A model generated the notes under the pieces. That model was not told the DNA's origin. It ran no database searches and saw only the letters and a program-made list of their open reading frames with translations. The position numbers and the translations under genes were made by a program. 64,000 nucleotides of DNA from Escherichia coli (GTDB lineage: Bacteria > Pseudomonadota > Gammaproteobacteria > Enterobacterales > Enterobacteriaceae): assembly GCF_045037415.1 (NCBI RefSeq), contig NZ_CP173438.1, one strand, 5' to 3'. Below are positions 1,750 through 62,838 of the stretch, piece after piece; the stretch's first letter is position 1; each line of letters opens with the position of its first letter.

Positions 1750-2341
1750 GAGAGTCAGCCCATTCTGCAAGCTCCTGGCGGCGTGCCACTGGGAGCGCAG
1801 CTTCATGAATGCCGATAATGGCCCCTTCAAGCATAAACAGAATCTTTTCTGTCACCAGACAGTTTTGCTGCCGCAGTCGCAACCAACACATTTTTGCCCC
1901 AAGTATACGTAACGCCCGTACATCCTTAATCCCCACCTCCCCGAGAATCGCTTCCAGATGAAAAGACATATTGGGCAAATCTTTCAGTCTTTCCCGGGTA
2001 TTGCGCGTGCTTTTCTCTTTCAGCGCTGCATCGAGAGAATATTTCGACAGACGCACCAGCTTCAGTTGATTTCGCCATAGACTTTCATCAACTCGATAGT
2101 AATTGAGGGTAACGGATCGGCCACACTTTTTATATGTCAGCCAGACAGGCGGATGTTTTACACAGTACTGTGCACTTTGCTCACAAGCCCGAAGATACAA
2201 CTCACCATCAGAAACCATCGCAAACACCGTGTCGTCAACGGTCAGGCTGTAACTACCAAACAATGATCGGTATTCAATTGTGCCCAACGTTGCCAGGTAT
2301 TCTTGTGATTTATAGATCCGCTTATAGGAGAGGCTTTTCAT
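1712..2341 (-). CDS. sxy: Competence/CRP-S regulator Sxy (TfoX), 209 aa
   Basis: 209-aa ORF, sequence recognised as Sxy; position next to sulA as in K-12. Confidence 0.88.
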   Translation of the reverse strand: MKSLSYKRIYKSQEYLATLGTIEYRSLFGSYSLTVDDTVFAMVSDGELYLRACEQSAQYCVKHPPVWLTYKKCGRSVTLNYYRVDESLWRNQLKLVRLSKYSLDAALKEKSTRNTRERLKDLPNMSFHLEAILGEVGIKDVRALRILGAKMCWLRLRQQNCLVTEKILFMLEGAIIGIHEAALPVARRQELAEWADSLTPKQEFPAELE

Positions 2342-2517
2342 AAAATTCCTTTTAAAATCATAACATAAAAGAATGATTCACATTAACGGATCCGTTAACT
2401 ACGAAAATAGGCAACTTATTCTTAAGGGGCAAGATTAATTTATGTTTTCCCGCCACCAACGACAAAATTTGCGAGGCTCTTTCCGAAAATAGGGTTGATC
2501 TTTGTCGTCACTGGATG

Positions 2518-2537
2518 TACTGTACATTCATACAGTA
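2518..2537 (+). promoter_or_regulatory. LexA SOS box upstream of sulA
   Basis: TACTGTACATTCATACAGTA matches the CTGT-N8-ACAG LexA consensus, about 25 bp upstream of the sulA start. Confidence 0.8.
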
Positions 2538-2559
2538 ACTCACAGGGGCTGGATTGATT

Positions 2560-3069
2560 ATGTACACTTCAGGCTATGCACATCGTTCTTCGTCGTTCTC
2601 ATCCGCAGCAAGTAAAATTGCGCGTGTCTCTACGGAAAACACTACAGCCGGGCTTATCAGTGAAGTTGTCTATCGCGAAGATCAGCCCATGATGACGCAA
2701 CTTCTACTGTTGCCATTGTTACAGCAACTCGGTCAGCAATCACGCTGGCAACTCTGGTTAACACCGCAACAAAAACTGAGTCGCGAATGGGTTCAGGCAT
2801 CTGGGCTACCCTTAACGAAAGTAATGCAGATTAGCCAGCTCTCCCCTTGCCACACCGTGGAGTCAATGGTTCGCGCTTTACGCACGGGCAATTACAGCGT
2901 GGTGATCGGTTGGTTGGCAGATGATTTGACTGCAGAAGAGCATGCTGAACTTGTTGATGCGGCAAATGAAGGTAACGCTATGGGGTTTATTATGCGTCCG
3001 GTAAGCGCATCCTCTCACGCAACGAGACAACTTTCCGGGCTAAAAATTCACTCTAATTTGTATCATTAA
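2560..3069 (+). CDS. sulA: SOS cell-division inhibitor SulA, 169 aa
   Basis: Translation from [11 protein letters not shown] matches SulA; track ORF starts 2 codons upstream at 2554. Confidence 0.9.
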
Positions 3070-3424
3070 GTAAATTTAGGATTAATCCTGGAACTTTTTT
3101 TATCGCCCAGCCAATGCTTTCAGTCGTGACTAATTTTCCTTGCGGAGGCTTGTCTGAAGCGGTTTCCGCGATTTTCTTCTGTAAATTGTCGCTGACAAAA
3201 AAGATTAAACGTACCTTATACAAGACTTTTTTTTCATATGCCTGACGGAGTTCACACTTGTAAGTTTTCAACTACGTTGTAGACTTTACATCGCCAGGGG
3301 TGCTCGGCATAAGCCGAAGATATCGGTAGAGTTAATATTGAGCAGATCCCCGGTGAAGGATTTAACCGTGTTATCTCGTTGGAGATATTCATGGCGTATT
3401 TTGGATGATAACGAGGCGCAAAAA

Positions 3425-4477
3425 ATGAAAAAGACAGCTATCGCGATTGCAGTGGCACTGGCTGGTTTCGCTACCGTAGCGCAGGCCGCTCCGAAAGATA
3501 ACACCTGGTACACTGGTGCTAAACTGGGCTGGTCCCAGTACCATGACACTGGTTTTATTCCTAACAATGGTCCGACCCACGAAAACCAACTGGGTGCAGG
3601 TGCTTTTGGTGGTTACCAGGTTAACCCGTATGTTGGCTTTGAAATGGGTTACGACTGGTTAGGTCGTATGCCGTACAAAGGCGACAACATCAACGGCGCA
3701 TACAAAGCTCAGGGCGTTCAGCTGACCGCTAAACTGGGTTACCCAATCACTGACGATCTGGACATCTACACTCGTCTGGGTGGTATGGTATGGCGTGCAG
3801 ACACCAAGGCTAACGTACCTGGTGGCGCATCCTTTAAAGACCACGACACCGGCGTTTCTCCGGTCTTCGCTGGCGGTGTTGAGTATGCGATCACTCCCGA
3901 AATCGCTACCCGTCTGGAATACCAGTGGACCAACAACATCGGTGATGCACACACCATCGGCACTCGTCCGGACAACGGCATGCTGAGCCTGGGTGTTTCC
4001 TACCGTTTCGGTCAGGGCGAAGCAGCTCCAGTAGTTGCTCCGGCTCCAGCTCCGGCACCGGAAGTACAGACCAAGCACTTCACTCTGAAGTCTGACGTTC
4101 TGTTCACCTTCAACAAAGCAACCCTGAAACCGGAAGGTCAGGCTGCTCTGGATCAGCTGTACAGCCAGCTGAGCAACCTGGATCCGAAAGACGGTTCCGT
4201 AGTTGTTCTGGGTTACACTGACCGCATCGGTTCTGACGCTTATAACCAGGCTCTGTCCGAGCGTCGTGCTCAGTCCGTTGTTGATTACCTGATCTCTAAA
4301 GGTATCCCGGCAGACAAAATCTCCGCACGTGGTATGGGCGAATCCAACCCGGTTACTGGCAACACCTGTGACAACGTGAAACAGCGTGCTGCACTGATCG
4401 ATTGCCTGGCTCCGGATCGTCGCGTAGAGATCGAAGTTAAAGGCATCAAAGACGTTGTAACTCAGCCGCAGGCTTAA
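3425..4477 (+). CDS. ompA: Outer membrane protein A, 350 aa, variant surface-loop allele
   Basis: Signal peptide [21 protein letters not shown], beta-barrel, APAPAPAP hinge and C-terminal OmpA/peptidoglycan-binding domain; track ORF 3338..4477 includes 29 spurious upstream codons. Confidence 0.95.
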
Positions 4478-4490
4478 GTTCTCGTCTGGT

Positions 4491-4520
4491 AAAAAACCCC
4501 GCTGCTGCGGGGTTTTTTTT
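4491..4520. terminator. Rho-independent terminator between convergent ompA and matP
   Basis: AAAAAACCCCGCTGCTGCGGGGTTTTTTTT: GC stem flanked by A and T runs. Confidence 0.8.
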
Positions 4521-4552
4521 CGCCTTGCGTAAATTGAACTGACTTTTGACAG

Positions 4553-5005
4553 TTATTCCTTACCCAGCAATGCCTGCAGATCCTGCTTCAAAGAAGACAT
4601 TTTATTCGCGTATTTCTCTTTGTTTTCCGCATCTTCAATCAGCTGAACAATCGTTTCAGAAAGCGTTTTACCGCGACGCTGCGCAAGGCCAGCCAGACGT
4701 TGCCAGACGATAAATTCCAGATCGATCGATTTTTTGCGCGTATGCTGGTGTTCCGCATTAAAATGGCGCTTCCGTCTGGCCCGAATGGTCTGCTTCATGC
4801 GATTGACCAGTTCCGGATTCATATGCTTGTCAATCCAACCATTTACCAGCACGGGTTCATTTTCCAGCGAGAGCAACTCATCGACGGCTTCCTGGGCGGC
4901 ACTGGCTTCTATGTAACGGGTGATTAACTCCCCTTCGCGGTGCTTCTTCACCAGATACTTCCATTTCCAACCGCTTTCAAGATTTTCAAGTTGTTGATAT
5001 TTCAT
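4553..5005 (-). CDS. matP: Macrodomain Ter protein MatP, 150 aa
   Basis: 150-aa ORF recognised as MatP (YcbG); K-12 synteny. Confidence 0.9.
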
Positions 5006-5190
5006 AGCGATCTCAATGTTACCGTGTAACTCTTTACAGAATATCAGCTTTTTAGGCCAGTGAAGAAAAGAATCTCCATCCTGTGAGCTTTAACGCCCAT
5101 GCCAGGCGTATTGTCGTTGCTTTCTACGTGTGCTGCAGTGCCGGTTACGGTATAATCGCGGCTTTGACAACAGACTAAAAAACATCAACT

Positions 5191-6951
5191 TTGACCATTA
5201 CGAAACTTGCATGGCGTGACCTGGTTCCTGATACCGATAGCTATCAGGAAATATTTGCTCAGCCACATTTGATTGACGAAAACGATCCTTTATTCAGTGA
5301 TACTCAACCGCGACTGCAATTTGCGCTGGAGCAGTTGCTGCATACGCGAGCATCCTCCTCTTTTATGCTGGCGAAGGCCCCGGAAGAGTCTGAGTATCTG
5401 AATCTTATTGCTGATGCCGCGCGTACGCTACAAAGCGATGCAGGCCAACTGGTGGGCGGTCACTATGAGGTTTCCGGCCACACCATCCGCTTACGTCACG
5501 CAGTGAGTGCAGATGATAATTTTGCGACTTTAACGCAAGTTGTCGCTGCCGACTGGGTAGAAGCAGAGCAACTCTTTGGCTGCCTGCGTCAGTTTAATGG
5601 CGATATTACCCTGCAGCCTGGTCTGGTGCATCAGGCAAATGGCGGTATTCTCATCATCTCTTTGCGTACACTGCTGGCGCAACCTCTGCTGTGGATGCGG
5701 CTGAAAAATATCGTTAACCGCGAGCGTTTTGACTGGGTTGCGTTTGATGAGTCGCGCCCTCTCCCCGTCTCTGTGCCTTCGATGCCATTGAAGCTGAAAG
5801 TCATTCTGGTAGGCGAACGCGAATCATTGGCTGATTTCCAGGAGATGGAGCCAGAGCTTTCAGAGCAGGCTATTTATAGCGAATTTGAAGATACTCTGCA
5901 GATTGTCGATGCGGAGTCAGTAAGCCAGTGGTGTCGCTGGGTGACATTTACCGCCAGACATAATCACTTACCAGCACCGGGAGCGGATGCCTGGCCGGTA
6001 CTTATCCGCGAAGCAGCACGCTACACTGGTGAACAAGAAACACTTCCGCTTAGCCCGCAGTGGATCCTCCGCCAGTGTCAAGAGGTCGCCTCCCTGTGTG
6101 ATGGCGACACCTTCTCCGGCGAGCAGCTAAACTTAATGCTACAGCAGCGTGAATGGCGCGAAGGTTTCCTCGCTGAACGCATGCAGGATGAGATCCTTCA
6201 GGAGCAAATCCTGATTGAAACCGAAGGCGAACGCATCGGGCAAATTAACGCCCTTTCGGTCATTGAATTTCCGGGTCATCCACGCGCTTTTGGCGAACCT
6301 TCTCGCATTAGCTGCGTTGTGCATATTGGCGATGGTGAATTCACCGACATCGAACGCAAAGCGGAGCTTGGCGGCAATATCCATGCGAAAGGGATGATGA
6401 TCATGCAAGCGTTCCTGATGTCGGAACTACAGCTTGAGCAACAGATCCCCTTCTCAGCATCGCTGACATTTGAGCAGTCATACAGTGAAGTGGATGGCGA
6501 TAGTGCCTCGATGGCTGAACTCTGCGCTCTGATCAGCGCCCTCGCCGATGTGCCGGTGAATCAGAGTATCGCTATCACAGGTTCAGTCGATCAGTTCGGT
6601 CGCGCCCAGCCAGTCGGTGGTTTAAATGAGAAAATCGAAGGCTTCTTTGCTATTTGCCAGCAACGTGAGTTAACGGGGAAACAAGGTGTCATTATCCCCA
6701 CTGCTAACGTTCGCCATTTAAGTCTTCACAGTGAACTGGTGAAAGCGGTAGAAGAAGGCAAATTCACCATCTGGGCAGTAGACGATGTGACTGACGCACT
6801 GCCGTTATTATTAAATCTGGTGTGGGATGGCGAAGGCCAGACGACGCTGATGCAAACCATCCAGGAACGTATCGCACAAGCATCGCAACAGGAAGGACGT
6901 CACCGTTTTCCATGGCCATTACGTTGGCTGAACTGGTTTATTCCGAACTGA
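5191..6951 (+). CDS. ycbZ: Putative Lon-like protease YcbZ (LonH), 586 aa, TTG start
   Basis: 586-aa ORF beginning [10 protein letters not shown] on a TTG codon; K-12 synteny. Confidence 0.85.
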
Positions 6952-6962
6952 TCGGACTTGTT
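6946..6962 (+). promoter_or_regulatory. Putative FadR binding site of the fabA promoter
   Basis: AACTGATCGGACTTGTT resembles the FadR operator as recalled; lies upstream of fabA and overlaps the ycbZ 3' end. Confidence 0.5.
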
Positions 6963-6963
6963 C

Positions 6964-6981
6964 AGCGTACACGTGTTAGCT
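6964..6981 (+). promoter_or_regulatory. Putative FabR operator of fabA
   Basis: Palindrome AGCGTACACGTGTTAGCT immediately upstream of fabA. Confidence 0.5.
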
Positions 6982-7019
6982 ATCCTGCGTGCTTCAATAA
7001 AATAAGGCTTACAGAGAAC

Positions 7020-7538
7020 ATGGTAGATAAACGCGAATCCTATACAAAAGAAGACCTTCTTGCCTCTGGTCGCGGTGAACTGTTTGGCGCTAAAGGCCCG
7101 CAATTGCCAGCACCAAACATGCTGATGATGGACCGTGTGGTCAAAATGACCGAAACGGGTGGTAACTTCGACAAAGGGTATGTTGAAGCAGAGCTGGATA
7201 TCAATCCGGATCTGTGGTTCTTCGGATGCCACTTCATTGGTGATCCGGTTATGCCGGGATGCCTGGGCCTGGACGCAATGTGGCAGCTGGTAGGGTTCTA
7301 CCTCGGCTGGCTGGGCGGCGAAGGTAAAGGTCGCGCGTTGGGCGTAGGTGAAGTGAAATTCACAGGTCAGGTGCTGCCGACGGCGAAAAAAGTGACCTAT
7401 CGTATTCACTTTAAACGCATAGTTAACCGTCGTCTGATTATGGGCCTGGCTGATGGCGAAGTGCTGGTTGATGGTCGTTTGATCTATACCGCCAACGACC
7501 TGAAAGTCGGTCTGTTCCAGGATACGTCTGCCTTCTGA
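7020..7538 (+). CDS. fabA: 3-hydroxydecanoyl-ACP dehydratase/isomerase FabA, 172 aa
   Basis: Translation from [14 protein letters not shown] matches FabA; track ORF 6822..7538 is an upstream in-frame extension. Confidence 0.95.
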
Positions 7539-7556
7539 TAATAATCAGACAGAGTA

Positions 7557-7595
7557 TAAAAAGGCGAAACCTCCGCAATGCGGAGGTTTCTTTTT
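7557..7595. terminator. Bidirectional rho-independent terminator between convergent fabA and rmf
   Basis: GAAACCTCCGCAATGCGGAGGTTTC hairpin flanked by A-run and T-run. Confidence 0.8.
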
Positions 7596-7607
7596 AAAGA
7601 GACAGAA

Positions 7608-7775
7608 TCAGGCCATTACTACCCTGTCCGCCATGGCTTCTCGCCAGCCTCCCAGCCATTGTGACCTTTGATTCAGCGTCTGATAGGGACACATTTCTTT
7701 TGAGCGTCCGGCGATGCCGGCCTGATAACCACGTTGATGTGCCCGTTCCAGGCGATCTCGTTTTTGTCTCTTCAT
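7608..7775 (-). CDS. rmf: Ribosome modulation factor Rmf, 55 aa
   Basis: Manual minus-strand translation MKRQKRDRLERA...DRVVMA*; below the track length cutoff, so absent from the ORF track in this frame. Confidence 0.85.
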   Translation of the reverse strand: MKRQKRDRLERAHQRGYQAGIAGRSKEMCPYQTLNQRSQWLGGWREAMADRVVMA

Positions 7776-8030
7776 GCCTCGTTTCCCTCATACTGGTTTC
7801 TGGTGGAAAAGAAAACAGTGATTACTAAATATGCAACCACAGTTAAGCAATACCGCGAATCATAACTGCCGTCAATGCGCAAAATTCACGCCACTGTCAT
7901 ATTTGTGAGCTACACGGGCATGTCGGTTGTACAAAAAATGTGAAGAGGAACAACTTTTTCCGCACGTTAGAAACAAAAAAACCGCCTCAGGCAACATACC
8001 GGAGACGGTTATATTTACAAATCTTTATGA

Positions 8031-8594
8031 TTAAGGTAGACGCTTTATCTCTTGCGCAATAGAAGCGGCTTCCTGACTCCAGACACGGGCCAGCACTTTA
8101 ACCATCTCATCGTAACCATCCTGAGTTTGCACTCCTTCCAGACGGAACGGACGTTTGATCAGTTGTCCCTGGTGGTTCAACAGCCACTCACCACTGACAA
8201 TGACCTTGCCATCATAGCGACCGTTAAACTCCGTGACGGTAACATTGAGCGTGTCCTGGGCGCTTCCCAGAGGCTGGGAGGCAACCACCCAGCCGGGCAG
8301 TTGCGTACTCAGGTTGGCAACCAGGGTGTTGCGCAACTGTTGATCCAACGGGCTGGCCCACAAGTTGTTGTTGGCAATCACATACTTCACATCACTGGTT
8401 TGATAAACCACACCATTCCCCGCCAGATAGTCAGGAACAGCGACCTGCTCAACCCATAACAGGCGATTACCCTGGCTGGCGGTGCTTTGTGTACCGCTCT
8501 GCACCACAGGTAACTGGTAATAGTTTTTATTAATTTCACCGGAGCTGCATCCGGCCAGCCACAGTGCCGCAATCGTCACTAGCCACTTTTTCAT
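8031..8594 (-). CDS. pqiC: Lipoprotein PqiC (YmbA), 187 aa
   Basis: Lipobox LAGC signal peptide; synteny with pqiAB. Confidence 0.88.
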   Translation of the reverse strand: MKKWLVTIAALWLAGCSSGEINKNYYQLPVVQSGTQSTASQGNRLLWVEQVAVPDYLAGNGVVYQTSDVKYVIANNNLWASPLDQQLRNTLVANLSTQLPGWVVASQPLGSAQDTLNVTVTEFNGRYDGKVIVSGEWLLNHQGQLIKRPFRLEGVQTQDGYDEMVKVLARVWSQEAASIAQEIKRLP

Positions 8595-10231
8595 TGTTTC
8601 GCCCTCTTCGGCTCTGGATCTTTTTTGTCCTTCGCTTCAAATACCAGCGCGTTACTCTTCTCGTTGAGCGTTTTCAGCACCGGTTGCAGTTCTCGCAACA
8701 CCTGATCAAGGCGCTGCATATCCGCCACCATCTTGTTGTAGGCTGCGGAACCAGGCTGGAAGCCCTGCATACTGCGATTCAATTCACGCAACGTTGACTG
8801 CATATCCGTCGGTAACTGCTGCATCGACTGGCTGGCGAGGATCTTGTTCATGCTATCCAGCGTCGTTTGCAGGTTTTTCATTGTGCGCTGACTTTCAGAA
8901 AGCGTACTGGTTGCCTGTTCAATCATCGGATTCAGTGGCAGTTTGTTGATCTTATCCAACGCTTCCATCAGTCGTTGCTGGATTTGCGCCAGGCCGCCGC
9001 TGACGGTCGGGATAATCTGATAACCATTAAATTCACGAATACCGGTTATTGCAGGCGTATTTGGATAGAAATCGAGATCAACATACAGTGCGCCAGTGAC
9101 CAGGTTTCCGGTTTTCAGCGATCCGCGTAAACCACGTTTCAACAATTCGCCAAGGTGCTCAACAACATCCGCATTTTCGCCAAGCTGCATTTTCAGCCGC
9201 TCTGGCTCGATACGAATCAGTACCGGAATACGGTAATCATCGTTAAATGTCTGACGCATATTCGGCGCAAAGAATGGCACTTTGCTTACGGTACCCAGGC
9301 GAATACCCCGGAATTCTACCGGAGCTCCCGGTTGCAGACCGCGTACCGAATCTTTAAAGAACATCAGATAATCAATGTGATCGGTGTACAACGAATCCTG
9401 AATGCTCTTCTGATCATCATACAAAACGAAAGCTGTTTTCGGTGCCACTGGCTGCCCTAAATCCAGACCTTCCGGCACATCAAAGCTGACACCGCCACTA
9501 AGCAGCGTTGTCAATGAGCCCATCTCCACACGCATTCCCGCTGACGTCAGATCAACCGCAATGCCACTATCTTTCCAGAAACGAACATTGCTGGTCACCA
9601 GTCGGTCATAAGGTGCATTGATGAACAGTTGATAGCTGATATTGCGTTTTTGCGTATCGAAAGTGCTGGTTTCAACCGAACCTACCCGATAGCCACGGAA
9701 CAGCACCGGATCCCCTGGCGAGAGCTGCCCGGCTTTTTTGCTATCGAGAAGCACACGGATACCTTTCGCATCAGGCGGGGCCAACGGTGGCGAGTCCAGC
9801 AAATCGTATTTATCCATTTTGCTGCCTTTCGCGCCTGGCTGCAGTTCGATATAAACCCCAGACAGCAGCGTTCCCAGGCCGCTAATCCCTTCTCGACCAA
9901 TCTGCGGTTTCACCACCCAAAAGACGGTATCTTTATGCAGCAATTTTTCCATACCGGAATTCAGCCGCGCTTTGATTTCAACGTGCGTCAAATCATCAGC
10001 CAGTGTGGCGCTTTCAACCACGCCGACGTCAACGCTACGGCTTTTAATGGTGGTTTTGCCACCTTCAATTCCTTCCGCATTCGCGGTGATCAGGGTCACT
10101 TCCGGTCCCTGATGGCTGTAATGATAAAAAAGAACCCAGGCCCCAATGAGCGCCGTGACGATAGGAAATATCCACACGGGAGACCAGTTCTTCACTTTCT
10201 GGATTTTGGCTTCCCCATTATTAGATTCCAT
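8591..10231 (-). CDS. pqiB: MCE-domain intermembrane transport protein PqiB, 546 aa
   Basis: Translation from MESNNGEAKIQKV; track ORF extends 20 codons upstream to 10291. Confidence 0.9.
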   Translation of the reverse strand: MESNNGEAKIQKVKNWSPVWIFPIVTALIGAWVLFYHYSHQGPEVTLITANAEGIEGGKTTIKSRSVDVGVVESATLADDLTHVEIKARLNSGMEKLLHKDTVFWVVKPQIGREGISGLGTLLSGVYIELQPGAKGSKMDKYDLLDSPPLAPPDAKGIRVLLDSKKAGQLSPGDPVLFRGYRVGSVETSTFDTQKRNISYQLFINAPYDRLVTSNVRFWKDSGIAVDLTSAGMRVEMGSLTTLLSGGVSFDVPEGLDLGQPVAPKTAFVLYDDQKSIQDSLYTDHIDYLMFFKDSVRGLQPGAPVEFRGIRLGTVSKVPFFAPNMRQTFNDDYRIPVLIRIEPERLKMQLGENADVVEHLGELLKRGLRGSLKTGNLVTGALYVDLDFYPNTPAITGIREFNGYQIIPTVSGGLAQIQQRLMEALDKINKLPLNPMIEQATSTLSESQRTMKNLQTTLDSMNKILASQSMQQLPTDMQSTLRELNRSMQGFQPGSAAYNKMVADMQRLDQVLRELQPVLKTLNEKSNALVFEAKDKKDPEPKRAKQ

Positions 10232-10235
10232 ACTG

Positions 10236-11489
10236 TCAGGACTCCTCATGCTCTGATTCAGGTTGACGATCCCACGACAAACGCGGGTCAAACGTCATAG
10301 CAGAAAACATTGTCATTATGACGACTAAAGCAAACATTAATGCACCCATTGCCGGATAAATACTCATTAAACCTCCCATACGCACCAGCGCCGAGAGCAC
10401 CGCGATAACGAAAACGTCAATCATCGACCAGCGGCCTACAAACTCAACAACTTCATAAATCAAATGCATTCTTTCACTGTCGCGCTTGCCGTGTCCTTTG
10501 GCATCCCAACACAGCCACGCAATGGCGATCATCTTTAACGTTGGCACCATAATACTGGCCAGAAAAATCACCGCAGCGACGGGATAAGAGCCTTCGCTCC
10601 ATAACAGAATGACCCCAGCGAGAATCGTCGACGGCATCTTCGAGCCTAATAAATCCGTCACCATGATGGGCAAAATATTAGCCGGAAGATACAGCATGAT
10701 AGACGTTACAAGCAGCGCGAGTGTCCATTGCAGGCTGTTTCTACGCCGAACGTACCCTTTGGTACTACAACGCGGGCACACGGGTTCATCAGCAGGAAGG
10801 ATTGCCGTACAACAGGAACACGAACGCAGCCCCTGGCGTATCCCCGTGACGCCTGGTTTTAGCGGCTGGCGCAGTTCTGGCATCGGGGCGATGTCGTCCC
10901 ATAACCAGCGACGATCAACGCACTGAAAAGCGCGCAGTTGCAGGACACAAAATAAACACCAGGGGAGAAAGCTGCTGCCTACCCCAATGCTGCCGTAAGC
11001 CATCAGTTTAACGAAACTGACCAGCACACCCGCGAGGAAAATCTCCGCCATTCCCCAGGTTTTGAGTTGAAAAAGCACCCGTGCCAGTTGCTCTTTTAAA
11101 CGGACCGGTAATTCCGCGCGATTCACCAGTAACAGAATGGTTATCAGACAAAACGCGGGAACCAGTTGCACAAACAACAGGAAAAAGGTGCCGAGGCTGG
11201 CGTAGTCCTCAGAAAAAAGCACGCCGGGAATTTCCAGTAATGTAATTTCACTGGTAACTCCTGCAACGTTCATATTCACAAAAGGAAACAAGTTGGACAG
11301 CAACAGCATGAACAGTGCAGCCAACGCATAGGCGGTGGGACGCTGCCGAGGGGCATCCCACGCCACGGTTAACGTTGTGCCACACCGGGGACATGCCGCT
11401 TTCTGACCATGCTCAAGGCGCGGTAACGCCACCAGCATGTCACACTGCGAGCACAGGATGTGCTTCGCGGCATGATGATGTTCGCACAT
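10236..11489 (-). CDS. pqiA: Paraquat-inducible protein A PqiA, 417 aa
   Basis: 417-aa membrane protein with paired Cys motifs; synteny. Confidence 0.9.
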   Translation of the reverse strand: MCEHHHAAKHILCSQCDMLVALPRLEHGQKAACPRCGTTLTVAWDAPRQRPTAYALAALFMLLLSNLFPFVNMNVAGVTSEITLLEIPGVLFSEDYASLGTFFLLFVQLVPAFCLITILLLVNRAELPVRLKEQLARVLFQLKTWGMAEIFLAGVLVSFVKLMAYGSIGVGSSFLPWCLFCVLQLRAFQCVDRRWLWDDIAPMPELRQPLKPGVTGIRQGLRSCSCCTAILPADEPVCPRCSTKGYVRRRNSLQWTLALLVTSIMLYLPANILPIMVTDLLGSKMPSTILAGVILLWSEGSYPVAAVIFLASIMVPTLKMIAIAWLCWDAKGHGKRDSERMHLIYEVVEFVGRWSMIDVFVIAVLSALVRMGGLMSIYPAMGALMFALVVIMTMFSAMTFDPRLSWDRQPESEHEES

Positions 11490-55123: not shown

Positions 55124-55886
55124 TTACTTACCAGAGGCGATACGATCACGGATGTGTTGCGCACGCTCTGTTGATGGTGGGTGAGAATCAAACATGGACT
55201 GGGTGTGACCGCCATCCAGGCTAGCGAGTTTTTCAAAGCTACCAACCAGCCCCTGGGTACTGATGCCACGTTTCTTCAACAGATCAAAGGAGAAATCATC
55301 TGCTTCTGACTCTTTATCACGGGAGTATTTAGCATTGATAGCGCCTTCTGCGATATCACCCAATTGTGAGCGGGAAAGCTGGGAAGCCACACCGCTGGTA
55401 GCTGAAATGGCATCGCGTGCGGCCACGATCGCATAAGAAGCTTTCATTTCAGCCAGCGAGTGACCCAACGCGACGTGGCCCAGTTCATGGCCCAGAACGC
55501 CTTCAATTTCGTTGTCGTTCATCATGTCCATCAGGCCACTGTAGACACGAACACAACCGTTCGCCATCGCCCATGCGTTGACGTCGCTGGTCATATAAAC
55601 CTTATAGTTGACTGGCGTGCCATTAATATTGTTACCCAATGCTTTGGCGATTTTTGCCAGACGTTTCCCGTACTTGCTGGATTTGCTTGCCACTTTATTG
55701 CCGCTGTCCATTTCGACACAGCCCTGATTGGCGATTGCTTTAGCATCAGCATCGCTTAATGTTGCGGCTTTATAAGCATTCAGACCTGAGCTGATAGCCA
55801 AATCGGTATTAATACCGTGCGTATTCTGACATCCTGTCAGTAAGGCTGCAGAGGTCGCAATCGCCAGCAATAATTTAGTATTCTTC
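55124..55886 (-). pseudogene. ycaL: Zn-metalloprotease lipoprotein YcaL: coding body intact but native ATG start and RBS displaced at the prophage junction
   Basis: In-frame codons for KNTKLLLAIATSAALLTGC (lipobox) and HELGH zinc motif are present, but the codon where Met1 is expected reads CAG, an in-frame TAA lies 16 codons upstream, and the first usable start is a TTG at codon 7 with no SD. Confidence 0.55.
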
Positions 55887-55961
<75 letters not shown>

Positions 55962-55962
55962 T

Positions 55963-56040
<78 letters not shown>

Positions 56041-56049
56041 TTGCAGATA

Positions 56050-56439
56050 TTACTCTTTTTTCTCCGTATCTGCATCGGGTTCATCAGCAAATAGCTTGCC
56101 CTGCATCCGATCCAGTTCTTCTTTTCTTACCCGCTTAACCACGCTGTAGACCCACTGAAGCGAAACACCAAATTTGCGGGCCAGTTCGTGGTGGTTGCGT
56201 CCGTTAAACTCCCTGAAGATTTCCCGGTCGCGCTGACTGACCTTCCATACCATGCCCATCGGGAAATAAACGTTTTGCCCGCCCCAGACCTGCATCATTC
56301 GGTTCGCGACGGCCTGACCAATCTGGTCGGCAACTTCGGGCTCAATATCAATAATCTCGCGAACGGTCTCAGAGGTATGCTGTGCCAGTTCCACCAGGAG
56401 TTCCGGCCCCTTACTTCGAAACTGATTCAGGTCGCTCAT
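56050..56439 (-). CDS. mor: Mor/C-family transcriptional activator (Mu middle-operon regulator homologue), 129 aa
   Basis: Same length as Mu Mor; motifs GGQNVYFP and REFNGRNHHELARKFGVSLQWVYSVVKRVR parallel the Mor HTH region as recalled. Confidence 0.75.
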   Translation of the reverse strand: MSDLNQFRSKGPELLVELAQHTSETVREIIDIEPEVADQIGQAVANRMMQVWGGQNVYFPMGMVWKVSQRDREIFREFNGRNHHELARKFGVSLQWVYSVVKRVRKEELDRMQGKLFADEPDADTEKKE

Positions 56440-56860
56440 GTTTGACTCCCGCAGCTCTGCGCTGCCACTTCTTCAGTTTCTCAATAACACTGCTTGCCTG
56501 TTCAGTACTGAGCCAGCGCAGGGCGCTGATGCCCGTTTCCCGCTTGATCCACCTCGCTAATGCATTTTCTGAACGGTCACGAACAATGCCGGCAGCAGCC
56601 ATTTCAAGCCATAGCGCACGAATTTTCCTGGACTGCGGATGGTTATCAAGCGGTAAACCGGAGCTGGCTTTTCTGGCTGGTTTAACGCGAAAGCCTTTCT
56701 TTTTCATGGATTCCAGCACGCAGTTTAGTTGTGTGGTATCCATTCCTTTGGTTGAGGCTTTACCGGTCAGCCCCTGTAACATCTGGCGGTAGGTGTCTTC
56801 ATCCATACCCAGTTCATTACGGGCAATATGGATAAGCTGTATCAGGCGTTTTTTCTGCAT
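56411..56860 (-). CDS. GemA-like protein (Mu gp16 / DUF1018 family), 149 aa
   Basis: N-terminal LIQLIHIARNELGMDEDTYRQMLQGLTGKASTKGM resembles Mu GemA/gp16 as recalled; sits immediately upstream of mor as in Mu. Confidence 0.55.
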   Translation of the reverse strand: MQKKRLIQLIHIARNELGMDEDTYRQMLQGLTGKASTKGMDTTQLNCVLESMKKKGFRVKPARKASSGLPLDNHPQSRKIRALWLEMAAAGIVRDRSENALARWIKRETGISALRWLSTEQASSVIEKLKKWQRRAAGVKHERPESVSK

Positions 56861-56861
56861 A

Positions 56862-57068
56862 TCATCTCCTTTTTTTCAGTCTGTCGGCAACAATGTCGGT
56901 TGCAGCTGGCAGGGTGACTGGCCAGAACAACATGACGGCGGTCATGTACAGGATGTAATGCGCGGTGTCGTAGTGCCTGCCATAGCCCAGGGAACGATGA
57001 AGTCTTGCGCTGCATGATCCTGCGTACATATACCAGAAAAGAAAACAGACAATGGTTTCAGTAGTCAT
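56862..57068 (-). CDS. Small hydrophobic protein, about 68 aa (start at internal Met of track ORF 56862..57224)
   Basis: MTTETIVCFLFWYMYAGSCSA... predicted TM segments; packed between neighbouring genes. Confidence 0.3.
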   Translation of the reverse strand: MTTETIVCFLFWYMYAGSCSARLHRSLGYGRHYDTAHYILYMTAVMLFWPVTLPAATDIVADRLKKRR

Positions 57069-57288
57069 TCTGAATACCTCCCCATTCGATATGAATATTA
57101 CGGGCAGCAATGACAGGGTCGTTATTCCACCATGCACCTGACATGTATTTTTCAACCTGTTCGCGTCCGGCAATAACACCAATTGTGATCCCCGGCCTGA
57201 CGTTCTTAAAAAAGGCGCGGGCAAAAAGGTATCTGGCAGATATTCGGCAGGCTTTTAATTTCCGGCTTTTACCTGATAGCGTAATCAT
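57058..57288 (-). CDS. Hypothetical phage protein, 76 aa
   Basis: Start overlaps the stop of the upstream gene (coupled arrangement); no recognisable motif. Confidence 0.35.
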   Translation of the reverse strand: MITLSGKSRKLKACRISARYLFARAFFKNVRPGITIGVIAGREQVEKYMSGAWWNNDPVIAARNIHIEWGGIQNDY

Positions 57289-57968
57289 CTGGCCTCCAGT
57301 TTCTGTTGTTCCTGCCCACTGACCGGGCGGTGCAGTCTGACGTTCTGCCCTTCACGAAACCCCGCATAGCGCGAGGCGTCGCCATTGCGGCTTCTTCCCG
57401 GTTTACGCGCCCTGGTGGTTTGCGTCTGCGGGTATTTATGTTCCAGCCACTGCTGCATCAGTTCACGCTCATCATCGGTCAGGGCAAAGGACTGTATTTC
57501 ACTGATAACGGCCAGCACCCAGCCTTCGGCAAACTGGTCTCCACGGCTGGTGCGGGTGGCGGTTTTTATTCTTTTGTTCTGTGCACTGATATACTGCTGA
57601 CGCGCCTTTTTCAGCTGACGGGCCAGCACTTCCCAGGTGTATGCAGCCAGTGCCGCACGTTCCCGGTTGCCGTAGAACCCCACAGACGGATGCGTGCCGG
57701 GGTGAATGATGGAGTTAACACCAAATACCTCGCGGATGATGTTCATCAGGCCCAGCATGTAGCGCGGTGGACGGAGACTGCCTGTCGGCCAGTAGTGACT
57801 GATGGTTTCATCAATATCACTCATAGCAATGTCGGAATGTGTGATGCCGTGAACATCCATCAGTTTACGGGCTCGGCGCAGTGCCAGAGCGGCCTCGTGC
57901 GGGTTGCCGGATGCGGCCAGCGCCAGCAACTTTTTCAGTTTCTCAATGTGTTTATTCTGGTCTGTCAT
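57285..57968 (-). CDS. Hypothetical phage protein with DUF2786-like N-terminal motif, about 227 aa
   Basis: KHIEKLKKLLALAASGNPHEAALALRRARKLMDVHGI motif; start placed at the second Met to avoid a 40-nt overlap (track ORF 57285..58004). Confidence 0.45.
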   Translation of the reverse strand: MTDQNKHIEKLKKLLALAASGNPHEAALALRRARKLMDVHGITHSDIAMSDIDETISHYWPTGSLRPPRYMLGLMNIIREVFGVNSIIHPGTHPSVGFYGNRERAALAAYTWEVLARQLKKARQQYISAQNKRIKTATRTSRGDQFAEGWVLAVISEIQSFALTDDERELMQQWLEHKYPQTQTTRARKPGRSRNGDASRYAGFREGQNVRLHRPVSGQEQQKLEAR

Positions 57969-58180
57969 TGTTCTGTATCTCCGGTATTTTTCTGCCGTTT
58001 CCATGCCCGGACAGCGTCGGACAGCTCTTTCAGGCTGTATGCTGCTTTAAGCTTTTCCCATAACCACTGTGTTGTTATGTGCATCAGCAGGGCAGCCAGG
58101 GCTGCCCCCGCACTGAGGCATGTCGCCAGGCCAGTAAGAATCAGTGTCCATGCGGTGATTTCCCTGAGTATGTCAGCCAT
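57965..58180 (-). CDS. Small membrane protein, 71 aa
   Basis: Single predicted TM helix (WTLILTGLATCLSAGAALAALLM) followed by a charged tail. Confidence 0.4.
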   Translation of the reverse strand: MADILREITAWTLILTGLATCLSAGAALAALLMHITTQWLWEKLKAAYSLKELSDAVRAWKRQKNTGDTEQ

Positions 58181-58194
58181 TGAATGCCTCCCGG

Positions 58195-58491
58195 TTACTC
58201 GTTCGTGTAAATCACGCCCAGTCGTGCAGCCAGACGTTCCAGTTTTTTCTGTTTGTGGAAGTCAATCAGCCGGTCCATCCCCTGAAGGCGCAGTTGCTCT
58301 GTCATGATTTCCACGTCTGCCAGCTCTGCCGCGAGGTCACTTTCGCTGCCCTGTCCGTTCAGGTTGCGGGCGGCACTGGCCGCCAGTTCAGCGGCCTCTT
58401 CTGCCAGTTTCAGGGCCTGTGCGTCCGGCCCGAAACGCTGCAGGGCCAGACGGTAGAGGGCGGTGCGGGTGAGTTCGGTGTTTCGTGTCAT
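58195..58491 (-). CDS. MazG-like nucleotide pyrophosphohydrolase-domain protein, 98 aa
   Basis: EEAAELAA...AAELADVEIM pattern typical of the small all-alpha MazG/HisE fold. Confidence 0.5.
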   Translation of the reverse strand: MTRNTELTRTALYRLALQRFGPDAQALKLAEEAAELAASAARNLNGQGSESDLAAELADVEIMTEQLRLQGMDRLIDFHKQKKLERLAARLGVIYTNE

Positions 58492-58500
58492 GCCGCGCCC

Positions 58501-58773
58501 TCAGTGCTTCCGGCTGACGGTGATGTGCAGGCCGCCTTCTGCAGTGGTTTCCATCCGGTACGGCACCTCATGCTCTGCCGTGTGGGTGAGTGTGTTCATC
58601 AGTACCTGCAGGGCAGCCTCCTTTCCGTTGGTCGCCACAATGGCCTGTGTGGCCATGCTGATTAGCGCCGTCAGGACGTGCTTCACATCGGTGAGGTCGC
58701 GGCATTCACACTCGTTGACATAGTGTTCAACAAGGGTTCGGGTGCGCTGTCGTGCTTCCTGTGGGGTAATCAT
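58501..58773 (-). CDS. Hypothetical phage protein, 90 aa
   Basis: ORF in operon context, coupled to the downstream gene; no motif recognised. Confidence 0.4.
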   Translation of the reverse strand: MITPQEARQRTRTLVEHYVNECECRDLTDVKHVLTALISMATQAIVATNGKEAALQVLMNTLTHTAEHEVPYRMETTAEGGLHITVSRKH

Positions 58774-58964
58774 TGCGAGTCCTCCCTGTCAGGGCGGGAG
58801 AATTCCATGACGGGCACGTCTGCCGAAAAATGCTGGCTGCAGTACGGGCAGACCAGGGTGACGCGTACCGCAGGGATGTGGTATTTACCGGACATCACGG
58901 CGATGGCGCTGTGAAAACGCAGGGCTGTTATATCCCTCTCGCACTGAATACATTTAAATATCAT
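58770..58964 (-). CDS. Small zinc-ribbon protein, 64 aa
   Basis: CxxC (CIQC) ... CxxC (CPYC) pairs. Confidence 0.45.
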   Translation of the reverse strand: MIFKCIQCERDITALRFHSAIAVMSGKYHIPAVRVTLVCPYCSQHFSADVPVMEFSRPDREDSQ

Positions 58965-59061
58965 GATTTAATTCTCCTCTGTTTCCGGCGTGCAGAAGCC
59001 CGCGGCGCTGACGTCGGAATAAAAAAGAAAATGTTTTTATTAAATAATTAACGTGGTGTGT

Positions 59062-59592
59062 TTACTGCACATCCTGCTCAAAAGGAATTATTGAAAAATC
59101 CTCAATGTCGCTTTTAATGGAAATACCGGGAATATTTTTCACGGCCTCTTTTTCATTCAGGATAGCGTCTTTATTTATTTCCTCTTTTACACGAATAAAG
59201 CGCTCAAGCCCCAGACGTCTCAGTAATTCAATAACATTATCCGCCCCACGGATACTGACTGATGGCGGACGGTTTCGCCACTGCACCTCGCCGGTGGTGA
59301 GGTTAGCGAACTTCACCTTCCCGTTGCCGGTCAGTTCATCACGGTGTGCCTCACACCATGTCTGAATACCGGACTGCAGTTCGGCCATGCGTTTTTTCAG
59401 GCTCTCGGTGAGCGGGGCATAACGTGCGGTGATATCGCCAATGGCGTCATTCATTTCTGTTTCAGCCCTGACCAGTTCACGTTGTGCGTCACCGAGTAGT
59501 CTGATTCCCTCAATGACCTCTTCACGTGTCCCCGGCACCCAGAGTGCTGCTGCGGCCTTGATACGTTTTGCACCTTTTGTACTTTTTGCCAT
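59062..59592 (-). CDS. gam: Gam-like host-nuclease inhibitor / DNA-end binding protein (Mu Gam family), 176 aa
   Basis: MAKSTKGAKRIKAAAALWVP...TEMNDAIGDIT...WCEAHRDELT...VSIRGADNVIELLRRLGLERFIRVKEEINKDAIL...FSIIPFEQD closely parallels Mu Gam as recalled. Confidence 0.85.
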   Translation of the reverse strand: MAKSTKGAKRIKAAAALWVPGTREEVIEGIRLLGDAQRELVRAETEMNDAIGDITARYAPLTESLKKRMAELQSGIQTWCEAHRDELTGNGKVKFANLTTGEVQWRNRPPSVSIRGADNVIELLRRLGLERFIRVKEEINKDAILNEKEAVKNIPGISIKSDIEDFSIIPFEQDVQ

Positions 59593-59619
59593 TTTTTATG
59601 ATTTCTCCAGTTGTGCTGA

Positions 59620-59889
59620 TTACCACAAAGATTCCGGCCACACGACGCGACAGCCGTGCAGTTCGAAAACGCCCTGACGGAAATATCCCCTGTGGTCATG
59701 TCCGGTATACAGATAACAGGCCTTTCCCTGCTCAAGCATGCGCATGCAATGCGCACTCCGGGAAACGCGGATGACAGGTTTGTTACCCCTGATGGTGATG
59801 CTTTGTACATCCGTGTTCGTCGCCTTAAGCGCCATAATGGCTGACTGCACTTTGCTGATTTGCTGGTTGATACCTGTGGTGGATTTCAT
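59620..59889 (-). CDS. Hypothetical phage protein, 89 aa
   Basis: ORF between the MuB-like gene and gam, where Mu carries kil; no motif recognised. Confidence 0.4.
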   Translation of the reverse strand: MKSTTGINQQISKVQSAIMALKATNTDVQSITIRGNKPVIRVSRSAHCMRMLEQGKACYLYTGHDHRGYFRQGVFELHGCRVVWPESLW

Positions 59890-59891
59890 TA

Positions 59892-61097
59892 TTAAACCCC
59901 TTTGACAACGTCAGCGTTGACCTGTGGAACCCCGATTTCAGCGGCCAGATTCATGGCGGCTATTACCAGGTTACTGACGGCCAGCGGATACAGCAGGCTG
60001 ACCATATTTTTACGGTGACTTCCCGGATTGCTCAGGCGGGCACGTATGGCATCCACTGCACCGGCGTCCATAATGTCCGTCAGCTGTTTACCGGCCCGTT
60101 GCAGTTTGAACGTCAGAAATTCTTCAAGGTTATTGTCCAGAGGCAGAAGTTCGACCACCTCACAGCGCTGAACGACTTCACGGACTTCCATATTGCGTTC
60201 AGACAGTTTTGTCGCCAGTTCCGGCTGGCCAATCAGCACGATGGACAGCAGTTTTTTGAAACCGGACTCCAGCTCAAAAAAGCGTTTGAGGTGTTTCAGT
60301 GTCGGAATGGGCAGACTGTGGGCCTCCTCAATCACCAGAACGTGGCTGAACCCCGCCTGGCTGCTGTCTTTCAGGACGCGATGCAACTGGCGAAAACGGG
60401 CGTCCTGACTGCGTCTGATGCTTTCCAGTGGTGCGATGGTACTGATAATGGCTTCGGCAATAGCTGCTGCCTTCAGGGTTTTCCCTTTCACATCGTTGTC
60501 TTCCATAGCGATGATGTATGGCTCGATAACAATTACCGGCGCATTCTCGCGGTTGATACGTTCAGTCAGGTCGCGGCGCAGCGTGGATTTACCCGCACCG
60601 GACTCACCGATGACGGCCATAAACCCACCATGACGGGCTGTCTGGTACAGCGCCTCACGCACGTAGCGAATGTCCGGGGTGGTGAACACATCATCAGAAC
60701 CCTGCATGGCTTCGTCGGCGAACGGGTCACGGAAAAGACCAAACGCTTTTTTGGTTGCTGGAAATAACACCTGTTTTTTGAGTAACATATTCTCTTCCTC
60801 ACTGAGGCTCGTTTTATCTGTGGTACCCGCTGTACGGGGCGTGGCCGCGCCCTGTACAGCATCAAAACTCTTCGTTGTATCAATCCCCTGACTTTCCAGC
60901 CAGGACGCAAGACGCCGGCGCACTTCTCCGGGGCTGGTGCGGGGCCACGCGTTATGATTCACAATCTGGGCCAGCGTGGCCTCAGAAACATCGACAGCTC
61001 TCGCCACCACCGCCTGTGGAATACGGGCCTCTTTCAGTTGCTGCTTCAGTACCAGCATGTTTCCCTCCTCAGTTGCCGTTAACAATGCTGATAACAC
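59892..61097 (-). CDS. MuB-like transposition ATPase (N-terminal HTH plus AAA+), up to 401 aa
   Basis: Walker A GESGAGKST, N-terminal Xre-like HTH (AVVARAVDVSEATLAQIV); immediately downstream of the transposase; start uncertain (the Met at 61058 would remove the overlap with the transposase gene). Confidence 0.8.
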   Translation of the reverse strand: MLSALLTATEEGNMLVLKQQLKEARIPQAVVARAVDVSEATLAQIVNHNAWPRTSPGEVRRRLASWLESQGIDTTKSFDAVQGAATPRTAGTTDKTSLSEEENMLLKKQVLFPATKKAFGLFRDPFADEAMQGSDDVFTTPDIRYVREALYQTARHGGFMAVIGESGAGKSTLRRDLTERINRENAPVIVIEPYIIAMEDNDVKGKTLKAAAIAEAIISTIAPLESIRRSQDARFRQLHRVLKDSSQAGFSHVLVIEEAHSLPIPTLKHLKRFFELESGFKKLLSIVLIGQPELATKLSERNMEVREVVQRCEVVELLPLDNNLEEFLTFKLQRAGKQLTDIMDAGAVDAIRARLSNPGSHRKNMVSLLYPLAVSNLVIAAMNLAAEIGVPQVNADVVKGV

Positions 61098-62838
61098 TGC
61101 TGCGGGCCGGTGTGGTCAGCGTGGCCATGACTTCATCCAGTGCGGCTTCCGGTACGCCGTCCGGGTACTGTGCCGTTAACTGGCGGTAATGTTCCGGCGT
61201 CCAGGTAAGGCCGTCGGCGCTGAACTTATCGCGCAGGGCTTTCGCGGCCTCCACATGAGTCATGGGACGTTGTTCAGTGCGCGGCCCGCGTACGTCAGAG
61301 GCCTGACCACGCTTCGGCATATAGGCCGGAAGTGTGGTGTCGTCGATATGTTTATACGGGTCAAGCCGCCCGCCGAACGGCAGCGCCTTCGCCTTGCGTG
61401 CGGCGGCTGCATCTGCGGCGTTGTCTGTACCGGTAACCAGCGCTTCGGTTTCTTTTGCCGCCATCTGTGCCGGGGTTTCCGGCAGGGCTTTGTAACTTTC
61501 GCCAAATACCGCCGCGCCTTCAGCAAAGCCAAACTCGTTCTTTCTGACCTCTTCGACCAGGAAGAACGTCTCGTGGCCGTCCTCACCGGTCAGAACCACC
61601 TGTGCCACATCGCTGCGCCATGGGTTACGGGTAATCATCAGTTTTTCACCAACCAGTACGCCCGGTACCGTTGATACGTCAAATTCAGTGCCCCGGAACG
61701 AGACACGAAGTTTTGGCGTGACTTTGCGGAGTTCTGGTGCCGCCACAGCCAGTTCACGACATACCTCAACGGAAGGCGCTTTTTTCAGCTGCTCAGCAGT
61801 AATCTTCAGCCAGATATCCGTGCGGGTTTTACCGTGGCGGCTGTGAACAGCCGTGGCGTTAAAGTGGCTGCGCCATTTCGCGGCCAGCGCGTTGAGTTCT
61901 TCCAGACTGTGAACCGGCCGGAACTTCAGACCCGGCTCCAGCTTGCGTTCGATAATGTCACGCGCCTTTTCCACCTGTCCGGTGGCGCGGGCGTTATGCG
62001 GCTTGTGCGCTATCAGGTCGATGCCCAGTGAGCGGCACATGTTTTTCGTCATACCCGCGGTGTTTGCCGAGCCGGGGTCGAGATAGAGTATTTTCGGCAC
62101 GCCGTGCAGCACGTCTGCGCCGCCACGCTCCTGCATGGCGTTGATAAGCACAGAACACAGGTTCTCACCTGATTCCGCGCCCGTCACATACTCAACGTAA
62201 ATCCAGCCGCTGGCATGGTCGGTAATCTCGTAACTCCACACGCGGTCACTGGCGATACGGGCAAGGTTAGCGGGCTTGTTCTTGTAGAACTTCGCGCTGT
62301 CCATCACCTGCAGCCCTTTATGTCCATTGCTCAGGTAGTAAAGCGTGCAGAGTGAGGCGTCAATCTGCCAGACATGATTGGGATGCAGACTGGCCACTTC
62401 GGTATGTGGTGCAGGGGCATCCAGTTGTTCCGGGTGCAGGCCATAGTTACGCAGAGCACGGCTGATGGCATCTTCAGACAACGGGAAAAACTCACTGGTG
62501 GTTTCATCTGTTCTGCCTGCGGTGATAAAGCCGTTAGCCCGCAGGGTTTCCACTGCATCTGCGATGGAATAGAGACGCTTACCGTTCTTGCGGGTGGCCT
62601 CACGCAGTGTGGCAGATATCAGCGCGGCTTCGTCGCGGGTCAGGGCGCTGCGCCCGGCATCGGCGCGTTTTTTGCGTTTATCAGTCACAGATACCTCCTT
62701 CAGCCTGCGCAGCAGAGTGGCGCGGGACATGCCAAGTTCAGCACAGGCAGCGTCGTATATTGCACCGCGTTTACCATGCCCCGCGTCACGTGCCGCGCGG
62801 GCTGTTTCAACCAGTTTTTCAGTCAGTGCCGGGGTCAT
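61069..62838 (-). CDS. DDE (rve/Mu-type) transposase, 589 aa
   Basis: N-terminal HTH; catalytic core with VWQIDAS ... YLDPGSANT ... ATGQVE arrangement. Confidence 0.85.
   Translation of the reverse strand: MTPALTEKLVETARAARDAGHGKRGAIYDAACAELGMSRATLLRRLKEVSVTDKRKKRADAGRSALTRDEAALISATLREATRKNGKRLYSIADAVETLRANGFITAGRTDETTSEFFPLSEDAISRALRNYGLHPEQLDAPAPHTEVASLHPNHVWQIDASLCTLYYLSNGHKGLQVMDSAKFYKNKPANLARIASDRVWSYEITDHASGWIYVEYVTGAESGENLCSVLINAMQERGGADVLHGVPKILYLDPGSANTAGMTKNMCRSLGIDLIAHKPHNARATGQVEKARDIIERKLEPGLKFRPVHSLEELNALAAKWRSHFNATAVHSRHGKTRTDIWLKITAEQLKKAPSVEVCRELAVAAPELRKVTPKLRVSFRGTEFDVSTVPGVLVGEKLMITRNPWRSDVAQVVLTGEDGHETFFLVEEVRKNEFGFAEGAAVFGESYKALPETPAQMAAKETEALVTGTDNAADAAAARKAKALPFGGRLDPYKHIDDTTLPAYMPKRGQASDVRGPRTEQRPMTHVEAAKALRDKFSADGLTWTPEHYRQLTAQYPDGVPEAALDEVMATLTTPARSSVISIVNGN

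Follow-up and report, generated by a model that had tools for sequence, protein, structure and literature searches.

We analysed a 64,000-nucleotide stretch of Escherichia coli DNA (contig NZ_CP173438.1 of assembly GCF_045037415.1; hereafter the window), in which the minus-strand open reading frame (ORF) at 57285-57968 almost certainly encodes a cytoplasmic protein of 227 amino acids (aa) composed of a DUF2786 and a DUF7168 domain (PHROG family 421), this being a conserved early lytic operon gene of a BcepMu/B3-type transposable prophage. With regards to its function, we tentatively favour, at a probability of about 0.38, a non-catalytic polyanion-binding protein that would aid the establishment or replication of mobile elements. 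The features of the gene that are used below were as follows.

57285-57968, minus strand: DUF2786 + DUF7168 gene (PHROG 421), coding sequence for 227 aa, stop codon included
57837-57947, minus strand: DUF2786 module (residues 8-44), a two-helix hairpin according to Pfam PF10979, AlphaFold2 and the family alignment
57402-57833, minus strand: DUF7168 module (residues 46-189), with a predicted KH-like core, long helices and a basic stretch
57288-57401, minus strand: C-terminal segment (residues 190-227), with a predicted helix at 196-207 followed by an extended tail of lower confidence
57965-57982, minus strand: translation start region of the gene, as read from the sequence
57285-57297, minus strand: ATGA overlap of the stop codon of the gene with the start of a downstream 76-aa ORF (57288), as read from the sequence

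A two-domain family and its gene

The ORF had been read in a first-pass annotation as a member of the uncharacterised DUF2786 family, based upon the motif KHIEKLKKLLALAASGNPHEAALALRRARKLMDVHGI, which was indeed found at residues 6-42 of the minus-strand product. The Pfam comparison proposed in that annotation confirmed the assignment, with DUF2786 (PF10979) matched at residues 8-44 (independent E-value 4.4e-11, model positions 3-40 of 40), and it added DUF7168 (PF23771) at residues 46-189 (independent E-value 1.6e-25, model positions 2-139 of 140). PHROG 421, a family of the category 'unknown function', was in addition matched over the full length of the protein (E-value 2e-77, profile positions 2-240 of 241). 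All of the 141 diverse relatives that we aligned had the same length, matched the DUF2786 hidden Markov model (HMM) at an E-value of at most 0.001 and carried DUF2786 and DUF7168 and no other Pfam family. The 227-aa protein differs in nothing from DUF2786, DUF7168 and PHROG 421, but as these are families without assigned function, membership in them explains nothing.

The claim that the function is uncharacterised also held. No family was matched by the protein at an E-value of at most 0.1, either in NCBIfam or among the PADLOC models of defence systems, and a PDB sequence search using phmmer and the family profile found no characterised relative, with the sole hit, to a de novo designed helix at an E-value of 0.03, being dismissed as compositional. 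Foldseek searches against PDB and AFDB50 gave no characterised function that could be assigned to the protein, and a search for domain fusions using an N-terminal-only profile returned mainly short fragments. In the full-text literature DUF2786 was found in four incidental mentions only, such as a mycobacterial DUF2786 protein in a table of the ClpC1 interactome, while nothing was found on DUF7168, PF10979, PF23771 or IPR024498; a hit for 'phrog_421' proved to be a word-start match to phrog_4219. Literature searches on D3112 early genes and on Casadabanvirus, Beetrevirus and Bcepmuvirus turned up no functional study of the gene or its homologues. Apart from DUF designations, the family was met under a single name, 'H-NS histone family protein', given in UniProt to a family member of 232 aa (AFDB A0AAU8SIV6, 29% identity, TM-score 0.82), and this label is probably an automatic mis-annotation.

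The minus-strand ORF is clearly a real gene, far beyond what chance would give, since the family comprises more than 2000 clusters and since the ratio of nonsynonymous to synonymous substitution rates (dN/dS) was 0.09 when the gene was compared with a 95%-identical E. coli allele. Among 1.84 billion cluster representatives, clustered at 50% identity, we found 2184 relatives at an E-value of at most 1e-3 and 1115 at 1e-10 or lower, nearly all of them being 220-245 aa long and aligning end to end with the 227-aa protein. We also considered whether the ORF could be a chance reading frame or annotation artefact, with the true feature being a plus-strand ORF of 333 aa at 57306-58307. That long antisense frame does exist; however, it has no match to any PHROG family, whereas thousands of homologues, a confidently predicted fold and the low dN/dS just given all speak for the minus-strand frame, whereby this alternative is effectively refuted. 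The 333-aa frame runs antisense to the gene and to the neighbours upstream of it, and it is most plausibly a shadow ORF that arises from GC-rich coding sequence. No Rfam family was present within 55800-59200.

The translated product begins with MTDQNKHIEKL. Three lines of evidence favour this start: column 2 of the family alignment is methionine in 111 of the 141 sequences, matching the methionine of MTDQ; both the record of Escherichia phage PhiKM and RefSeq annotate a coding sequence of 684 nucleotides; and the start codon (ATG at 57968) lies 10 nucleotides downstream of a GGAG at 57979-57982 and, as part of an ATGA at 57965-57968, overlaps the stop codon of an upstream 71-aa ORF. An alternative in-frame ATG at 58004, which would give 239 aa, was set aside on the basis of the family alignment and its location inside the upstream ORF, and judging from the sequence it is probably not used. 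At the other end of the gene an ATGA at 57285-57288 joins its stop codon to the start of the 76-aa ORF, for which a GGAGG is found at 57293-57297, and such overlaps on both sides form the arrangement that would be expected for translational coupling.

Predicted fold and conserved residues

Modelling with AlphaFold2 using the 141-sequence alignment gave a single confident globule with a mean predicted local distance difference test score (pLDDT) of 94.1 and a predicted template modelling score of 0.86. The pLDDT was above 90 up to about residue 210, and only for approximately the last 20 residues was the confidence lower, with values of 72 and 64 for the final two blocks. The predicted elements comprised, in order, helices 2-18 and 23-40, forming the DUF2786 hairpin, and a short helix 44-49; strand 52-57, a non-helical loop 58-68, helix 69-82 and strands 85-89 and 95-101; and finally long helices 102-129 and 136-157, followed by helices 165-178 and 196-207. 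The DUF2786 motif, K..KK.LAL..S.N..EA..A...A..LM at residues 6-42, thereby falls in a predicted helix-turn-helix hairpin having an N-P-H-E turn resembling a capping box and an AxxAxxxA face, whereas about residues 50-125 of the DUF7168 module are modelled as a KH-like beta-loop-alpha-beta-beta-alpha core.

These results also revised one part of the first-pass annotation, which had described a basic, low-complexity C-terminal half. Its basic nature was clear, with 22 Lys and Arg against 12 Asp and Glu residues in that half and an isoelectric point (pI) of 10.1 for the whole protein, as compared with a family median of 9.6. Low complexity was on the other hand ruled out by the DUF7168 match, by a sequence entropy of residues 46-189 within the normal range (the segment of lowest entropy was instead in the N-terminal motif) and by the pLDDT above 90, and the C-terminal half is by prediction a structured and conserved DUF7168 domain. 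This is the only correction needed to an interpretation that the analyses otherwise supported as essentially correct. What they add is the full definition of two modules, a confidently predicted fold with a KH-like core, a set of conserved basic positions, a fixed position in Mu-like early operons and, as described below, the occurrence in elements other than transposable phages.

Conserved residues were found in both modules among the 141 relatives. In DUF2786, E25 and A29 were invariant and K13, L17, A26, A33, L36 and M37 were kept in more than 90% of the sequences. In DUF7168, Y110, R123 and D144 were kept in 128-139 of the 141 sequences and W150 was also nearly invariant, while further along G203 was found in all 141 and G207 in 128. 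The conserved polar positions of DUF7168 were mainly basic (R117, R123, K132, R133, K135, K139, R142 and R188), including a conserved basic stretch at residues 132-144 having the pattern KRxKxxT[KR]TxRxD, and with K10, K12 and K13 contributed by helix 1 the conserved Lys and Arg positions numbered about eleven in total.

Could such residues instead form an active site? An enzyme with nucleic acid or a small molecule as its substrate, using E25, Y110, R117, R123 and D144, would agree with the invariance of E25, with the near invariance of Y110, R123 and D144, and with the nucleotide- or DNA-metabolism genes that neighbour the gene or its homologues (MazG-like, Gam, thermonuclease). No enzyme fold was however matched at a meaningful score either in structure or in sequence, and neither a metal-binding nor a nucleotide-binding motif is present. 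Furthermore, as judged from the model, the DUF2786 invariants would most simply be structural, because N22-P23-x-E25 has the typical pattern of a capping box and a packing face of small residues would be formed by A26, A29 and A33. We hence find catalysis improbable.

The KH-like core also needs qualification. Type I KH domains (MEX3C KH1, 5www; Nova-2 KH3, 1ec6; hnRNP K KH3, 1j5k) were similar to it at only 12-20% identity, with Foldseek E-values that were not significant, and in comparison with them the 227-aa protein lacks the alpha1 helix and the GXXG loop, having instead a variable proline-containing loop, and places its core within a larger helical scaffold. The loop, residues 58-68 (HYWPTGSLRPP), has no GXXG and its alignment columns are variable with insertions and deletions, only P67, P68 and Y/W70 being conserved. 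KH families were absent among the Pfam matches of the protein and its 141 relatives. As alpha1 and GXXG are replaced and no KH profile was matched, we describe the predicted core as KH-like and have not filed it as a KH domain.

Distribution and proposed role

Public databases already list the gene, which is very common. An identical protein (100%) is encoded by Escherichia phage PhiKM and found on at least 1000 public contigs, and the gene was present in 620 of 5426 complete E. coli genomes, at varied sites and always with the RefSeq name 'DUF2786 domain-containing protein'. Other transposable phages carry full-length homologues of 33-38% identity in the same slot of the early operon, which follows MuB and either Gam or DUF3164 and precedes GemA and Mor. 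These include JBD24 gp17 (Pseudomonas; Casadabanvirus), B3 ORF5 (Beetrevirus), p12 of Shewanella MuM16-2, ORF8 of Pasteurella AFS-2018a and homologues in Curvibacter TJ1, in Mu-like prophages inside Yersinia and Klebsiella plasmids and in metagenomic contigs. The small flanking ORFs of JBD24, B3, MuM16-2 and AFS-2018a differ from those of the prophage in the window, and their homologues are likewise uncharacterised. When same-strand ORFs were clustered from 12 non-redundant loci, sampled from annotated phages, plasmids and encoding contigs, the only recurrent partners were GemA and Mor, found in 8 of the 12. The comparison of gene content across Mu-like prophages proposed in the first-pass annotation thus placed homologues in this slot in many transposable phages. 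With regards to the slot upstream, it held either a Gam homologue (4 loci) or DUF3164 (5 loci, plus B3 ORF6), and the two were never found together in the sampled loci (59062-59592 in the window; loci L003, L007, L009, L010, L015 and L017). DUF3164 may functionally replace Gam.

The family extends beyond transposable phages. In Acinetobacter a homologue was found in about 228 plasmid records, mostly typed as conjugative, and in p1DB007 of Acinetobacter baumannii it is part of a co-directional block, with thermonuclease and H-NS-like genes on one side of it and parAB on the other. That block (locus L016, 9696-14601), which is located upstream of parAB and looks like an establishment or stealth module, also holds a 136-aa gene annotated as 'type I restriction-modification system subunit M'. 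A Vibrio plasmid carrying a homologue also encodes a terminase and is thus a phage-plasmid; apart from this terminase, no neighbour in the non-Mu contexts had a PHROG match. In Komagataeibacter phage phiKM1, which lacks MuA and has a tyrosine integrase beside tRNA-Ser, the homologue is found in the early region, and in one contig a homologue abuts ordinary host genes. Occurrence on conjugative plasmids and in non-transposable phages argues for a general function in mobile elements.

This distribution also bears upon a possible role restricted to transposition. The 'arm' function of Mu, which is replication-enhancing and poorly mapped, is assigned to the gam-gemA region, and the protein could be an analogous accessory factor acting on the transpososome or on MuA/MuB. 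Its slot between gam and gemA, being that of Mu gp11 and gp12, and its occurrence in Mu-type early operons downstream of MuA/MuB in 8 of the 12 loci would suit such a role. The family is however kept without MuA/MuB in phiKM1, the Acinetobacter conjugative plasmids and the Vibrio phage-plasmid, and Mu itself lacks it, which makes a transposition-specific factor quite unlikely.

The polyanion-binding function that we favour would operate as follows. The DUF2786 helical hairpin would pack onto the KH-like beta-alpha-beta-beta-alpha core and long helices of DUF7168 in one compact globule, of which the conserved Lys and Arg residues, including those at 132-144, would make contact with a polyanion without catalysis. 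The target, met soon after induction or entry, would most likely be the DNA or RNA of the element itself or else a host complex bound to nucleic acid. The role would be to assist in establishment or replication of the mobile element and not in the chemistry of transposition, given that conjugative plasmids, a phage-plasmid and an integrase-type phage have retained this protein as well. A more far-reaching version, which we consider rather unlikely, would have DUF2786-DUF7168 proteins constitute a new class of KH-like DNA/RNA-binding establishment factors, acting with or in parallel to Gam and GemA and shielding or processing element DNA against host end-sensing, repair and immunity (RecBCD or Gabija-type) at entry and during early replication; a class common to transposable phages, phage-plasmids and conjugative plasmids is part of that same proposal, with the same low likelihood.

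The main rival is a host-takeover or anti-defence factor acting through protein-protein binding, which would dock on an acidic host protein, such as one of repair, replication or immunity, and, using its basic surface and divergent KH-like module lacking GXXG, neutralise or recruit that target at entry or induction of the element. Several observations would agree with this, including the missing GXXG loop itself, the location of the gene in early or establishment regions of very different elements near Gam, H-NS-like, thermonuclease and MazG-like genes, and the finding that no conserved element-encoded partner emerged from the clustering of the 12 loci, as would fit a conserved host target. 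In phage JBD30, moreover, the neighbours Gam (gp13) and GemA (gp20) are each reported to sensitise the phage to Gabija and interact with the RecBCD/Gabija axis (2025 preprint, 10.1101/2025.08.30.673261). Against the rival, the JBD30 escape mutations from Gabija map to genes other than the one considered here, namely gp13, gp20 and gp47 (10.1101/2025.08.30.673261). The protein is furthermore not acidic (pI 10.1), unlike DNA mimics such as Ocr and ArdA. The family also evolves slowly, with uniform length across Proteobacteria at 30-40% full-length identity, whereas anti-defence proteins are mostly patchy and fast-evolving, and the gene behaves as core rather than accessory in Mu-like early operons. 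Host takeover is accordingly a possibility that we hold to be somewhat unlikely. As a separate observation, Gam and GemA are the conserved genes flanking the DUF2786 slot, and the JBD30 preprint (10.1101/2025.08.30.673261) links this part of the Mu-like early operon to DNA-end and RecBCD biology.

The DUF2786/DUF7168 family, which numbers more than 2000 clusters (at 50% identity), has a fixed early-operon position in most Mu-like phages although not in Mu, and assigning a function to it would close one of the last conserved gaps in what the early region of transposable phages encodes. As conjugative plasmids of clinically important Acinetobacter, or more exactly the clinically important ones among them, also carry the family as a backbone gene, its function might reveal an establishment step common to phages and plasmids, and the confident AlphaFold2 model together with the list of conserved basic residues makes that function directly testable.

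The early operon and comparison with known systems

The gene lies within the early operon of the prophage, the features of which, as obtained by mapping the PhiKM annotation to the window and by PHROG matches, are given here in the order of transcription.

56050-62838, minus strand: early operon holding the DUF2786 gene
61069-62838, minus strand: MuA-like transposase (PhiKM annotation, PHROG)
59892-61058, minus strand: MuB-like ATPase (PhiKM annotation, PHROG)
between the MuB-like ATPase and Gam, minus strand: ORF of 89 aa
59062-59592, minus strand: Gam (PhiKM annotation, PHROG)
58770-58964, minus strand: ORF of 64 aa with CxxC...CxxC (PHROG 3401, unknown function)
between the 64-aa ORF and the MazG-like gene, minus strand: ORF of 90 aa
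58195-58491, minus strand: MazG-like nucleoside triphosphate pyrophosphohydrolase, 98 aa (PHROG 2245, E-value 5.5e-34)
57965-58180, minus strand: hydrophobic ORF of 71 aa, predicted membrane protein (PHROG 3958), upstream of the DUF2786 gene
57058-57288, minus strand: downstream ORF of 76 aa (PHROG 3681, unknown function)
between the 76-aa ORF and GemA, minus strand: ORF of 68 aa
56411-56860, minus strand: GemA (PhiKM annotation, PHROG)
56050-56439, minus strand: Mor (PhiKM annotation, PHROG)
55887, no strand: approximate prophage/host junction, with host ycaL on the left

Consensus scans gave no convincing internal terminator in this operon. The homologous reverse-strand pE operon (ner, A, B ... 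gemA, mor) of Fc02, a B3-like phage, is not expressed in the lysogen and is transcribed from 10 min after thermo-induction (PMC9936078). B3 ORF5, the homologue of the 227-aa protein, falls inside the operon corresponding to Fc02 pE, and by analogy the DUF2786 gene would be expressed early after induction.

Some of the neighbouring genes deserve comment. The 64-aa ORF, located between Gam and the MazG-like gene, has cysteine pairs at C5/C8 and C39/C42 and is probably a zinc ribbon. The MazG-like protein, which unlike in this prophage has no counterpart in the early operon of Mu, may deplete or sanitise nucleotides or signalling nucleotides. The 71-aa ORF behaves like a small insertion (moron) in the operon, since some variants of this prophage in E. 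coli lack it and since in strain IAL7250 the MazG-like gene directly abuts the DUF2786 gene with a 4-bp overlap.

The junction was placed by comparing window positions 55600-56300 with other genomes: in those without a prophage at the ycaL site the match stopped at query base 287, and prophage-only matches began at base 288. At least 80% of this segment, which spans the junction, was covered in 357 complete E. coli genomes, and this suggests that the ycaL-site prophage is a clonally inherited insertion. The early operon, with Mor last, reads toward the ycaL-side end of the prophage, as in B3 and BcepMu but unlike in Mu.

The first-pass annotation had stated that nothing at the equivalent position of Mu matches the protein, and this was upheld, as the family HMM had no match within Mu bases 1-11000 and as hhalign comparisons with gp11 and gp12 gave probabilities of 0.1% and 1%. 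Remote homology to these two Mu proteins was thereby rejected. Mu gp11 and gp12 (E10-E13), likewise uncharacterised, do fill the corresponding gam-gemA interval of the semi-essential early region, but they are 176 aa each as compared with 227 aa and have no detectable sequence or profile similarity to the protein studied here. DNA mimics of the Ocr/ArdA type have strongly acidic surfaces, in contrast to the basic nature of this protein and its family. Gam, PsiB, ArdA/KlcA and H-NS-like proteins, finally, which represent the establishment or leading-region proteins found on plasmids and the early host-interference proteins found in phages, have no homology to the 227-aa protein but share a similar niche with it, in that phages and conjugative plasmids encode them in early or establishment regions, and Gam, H-NS-like and nuclease genes are indeed found among the neighbours of its homologues.
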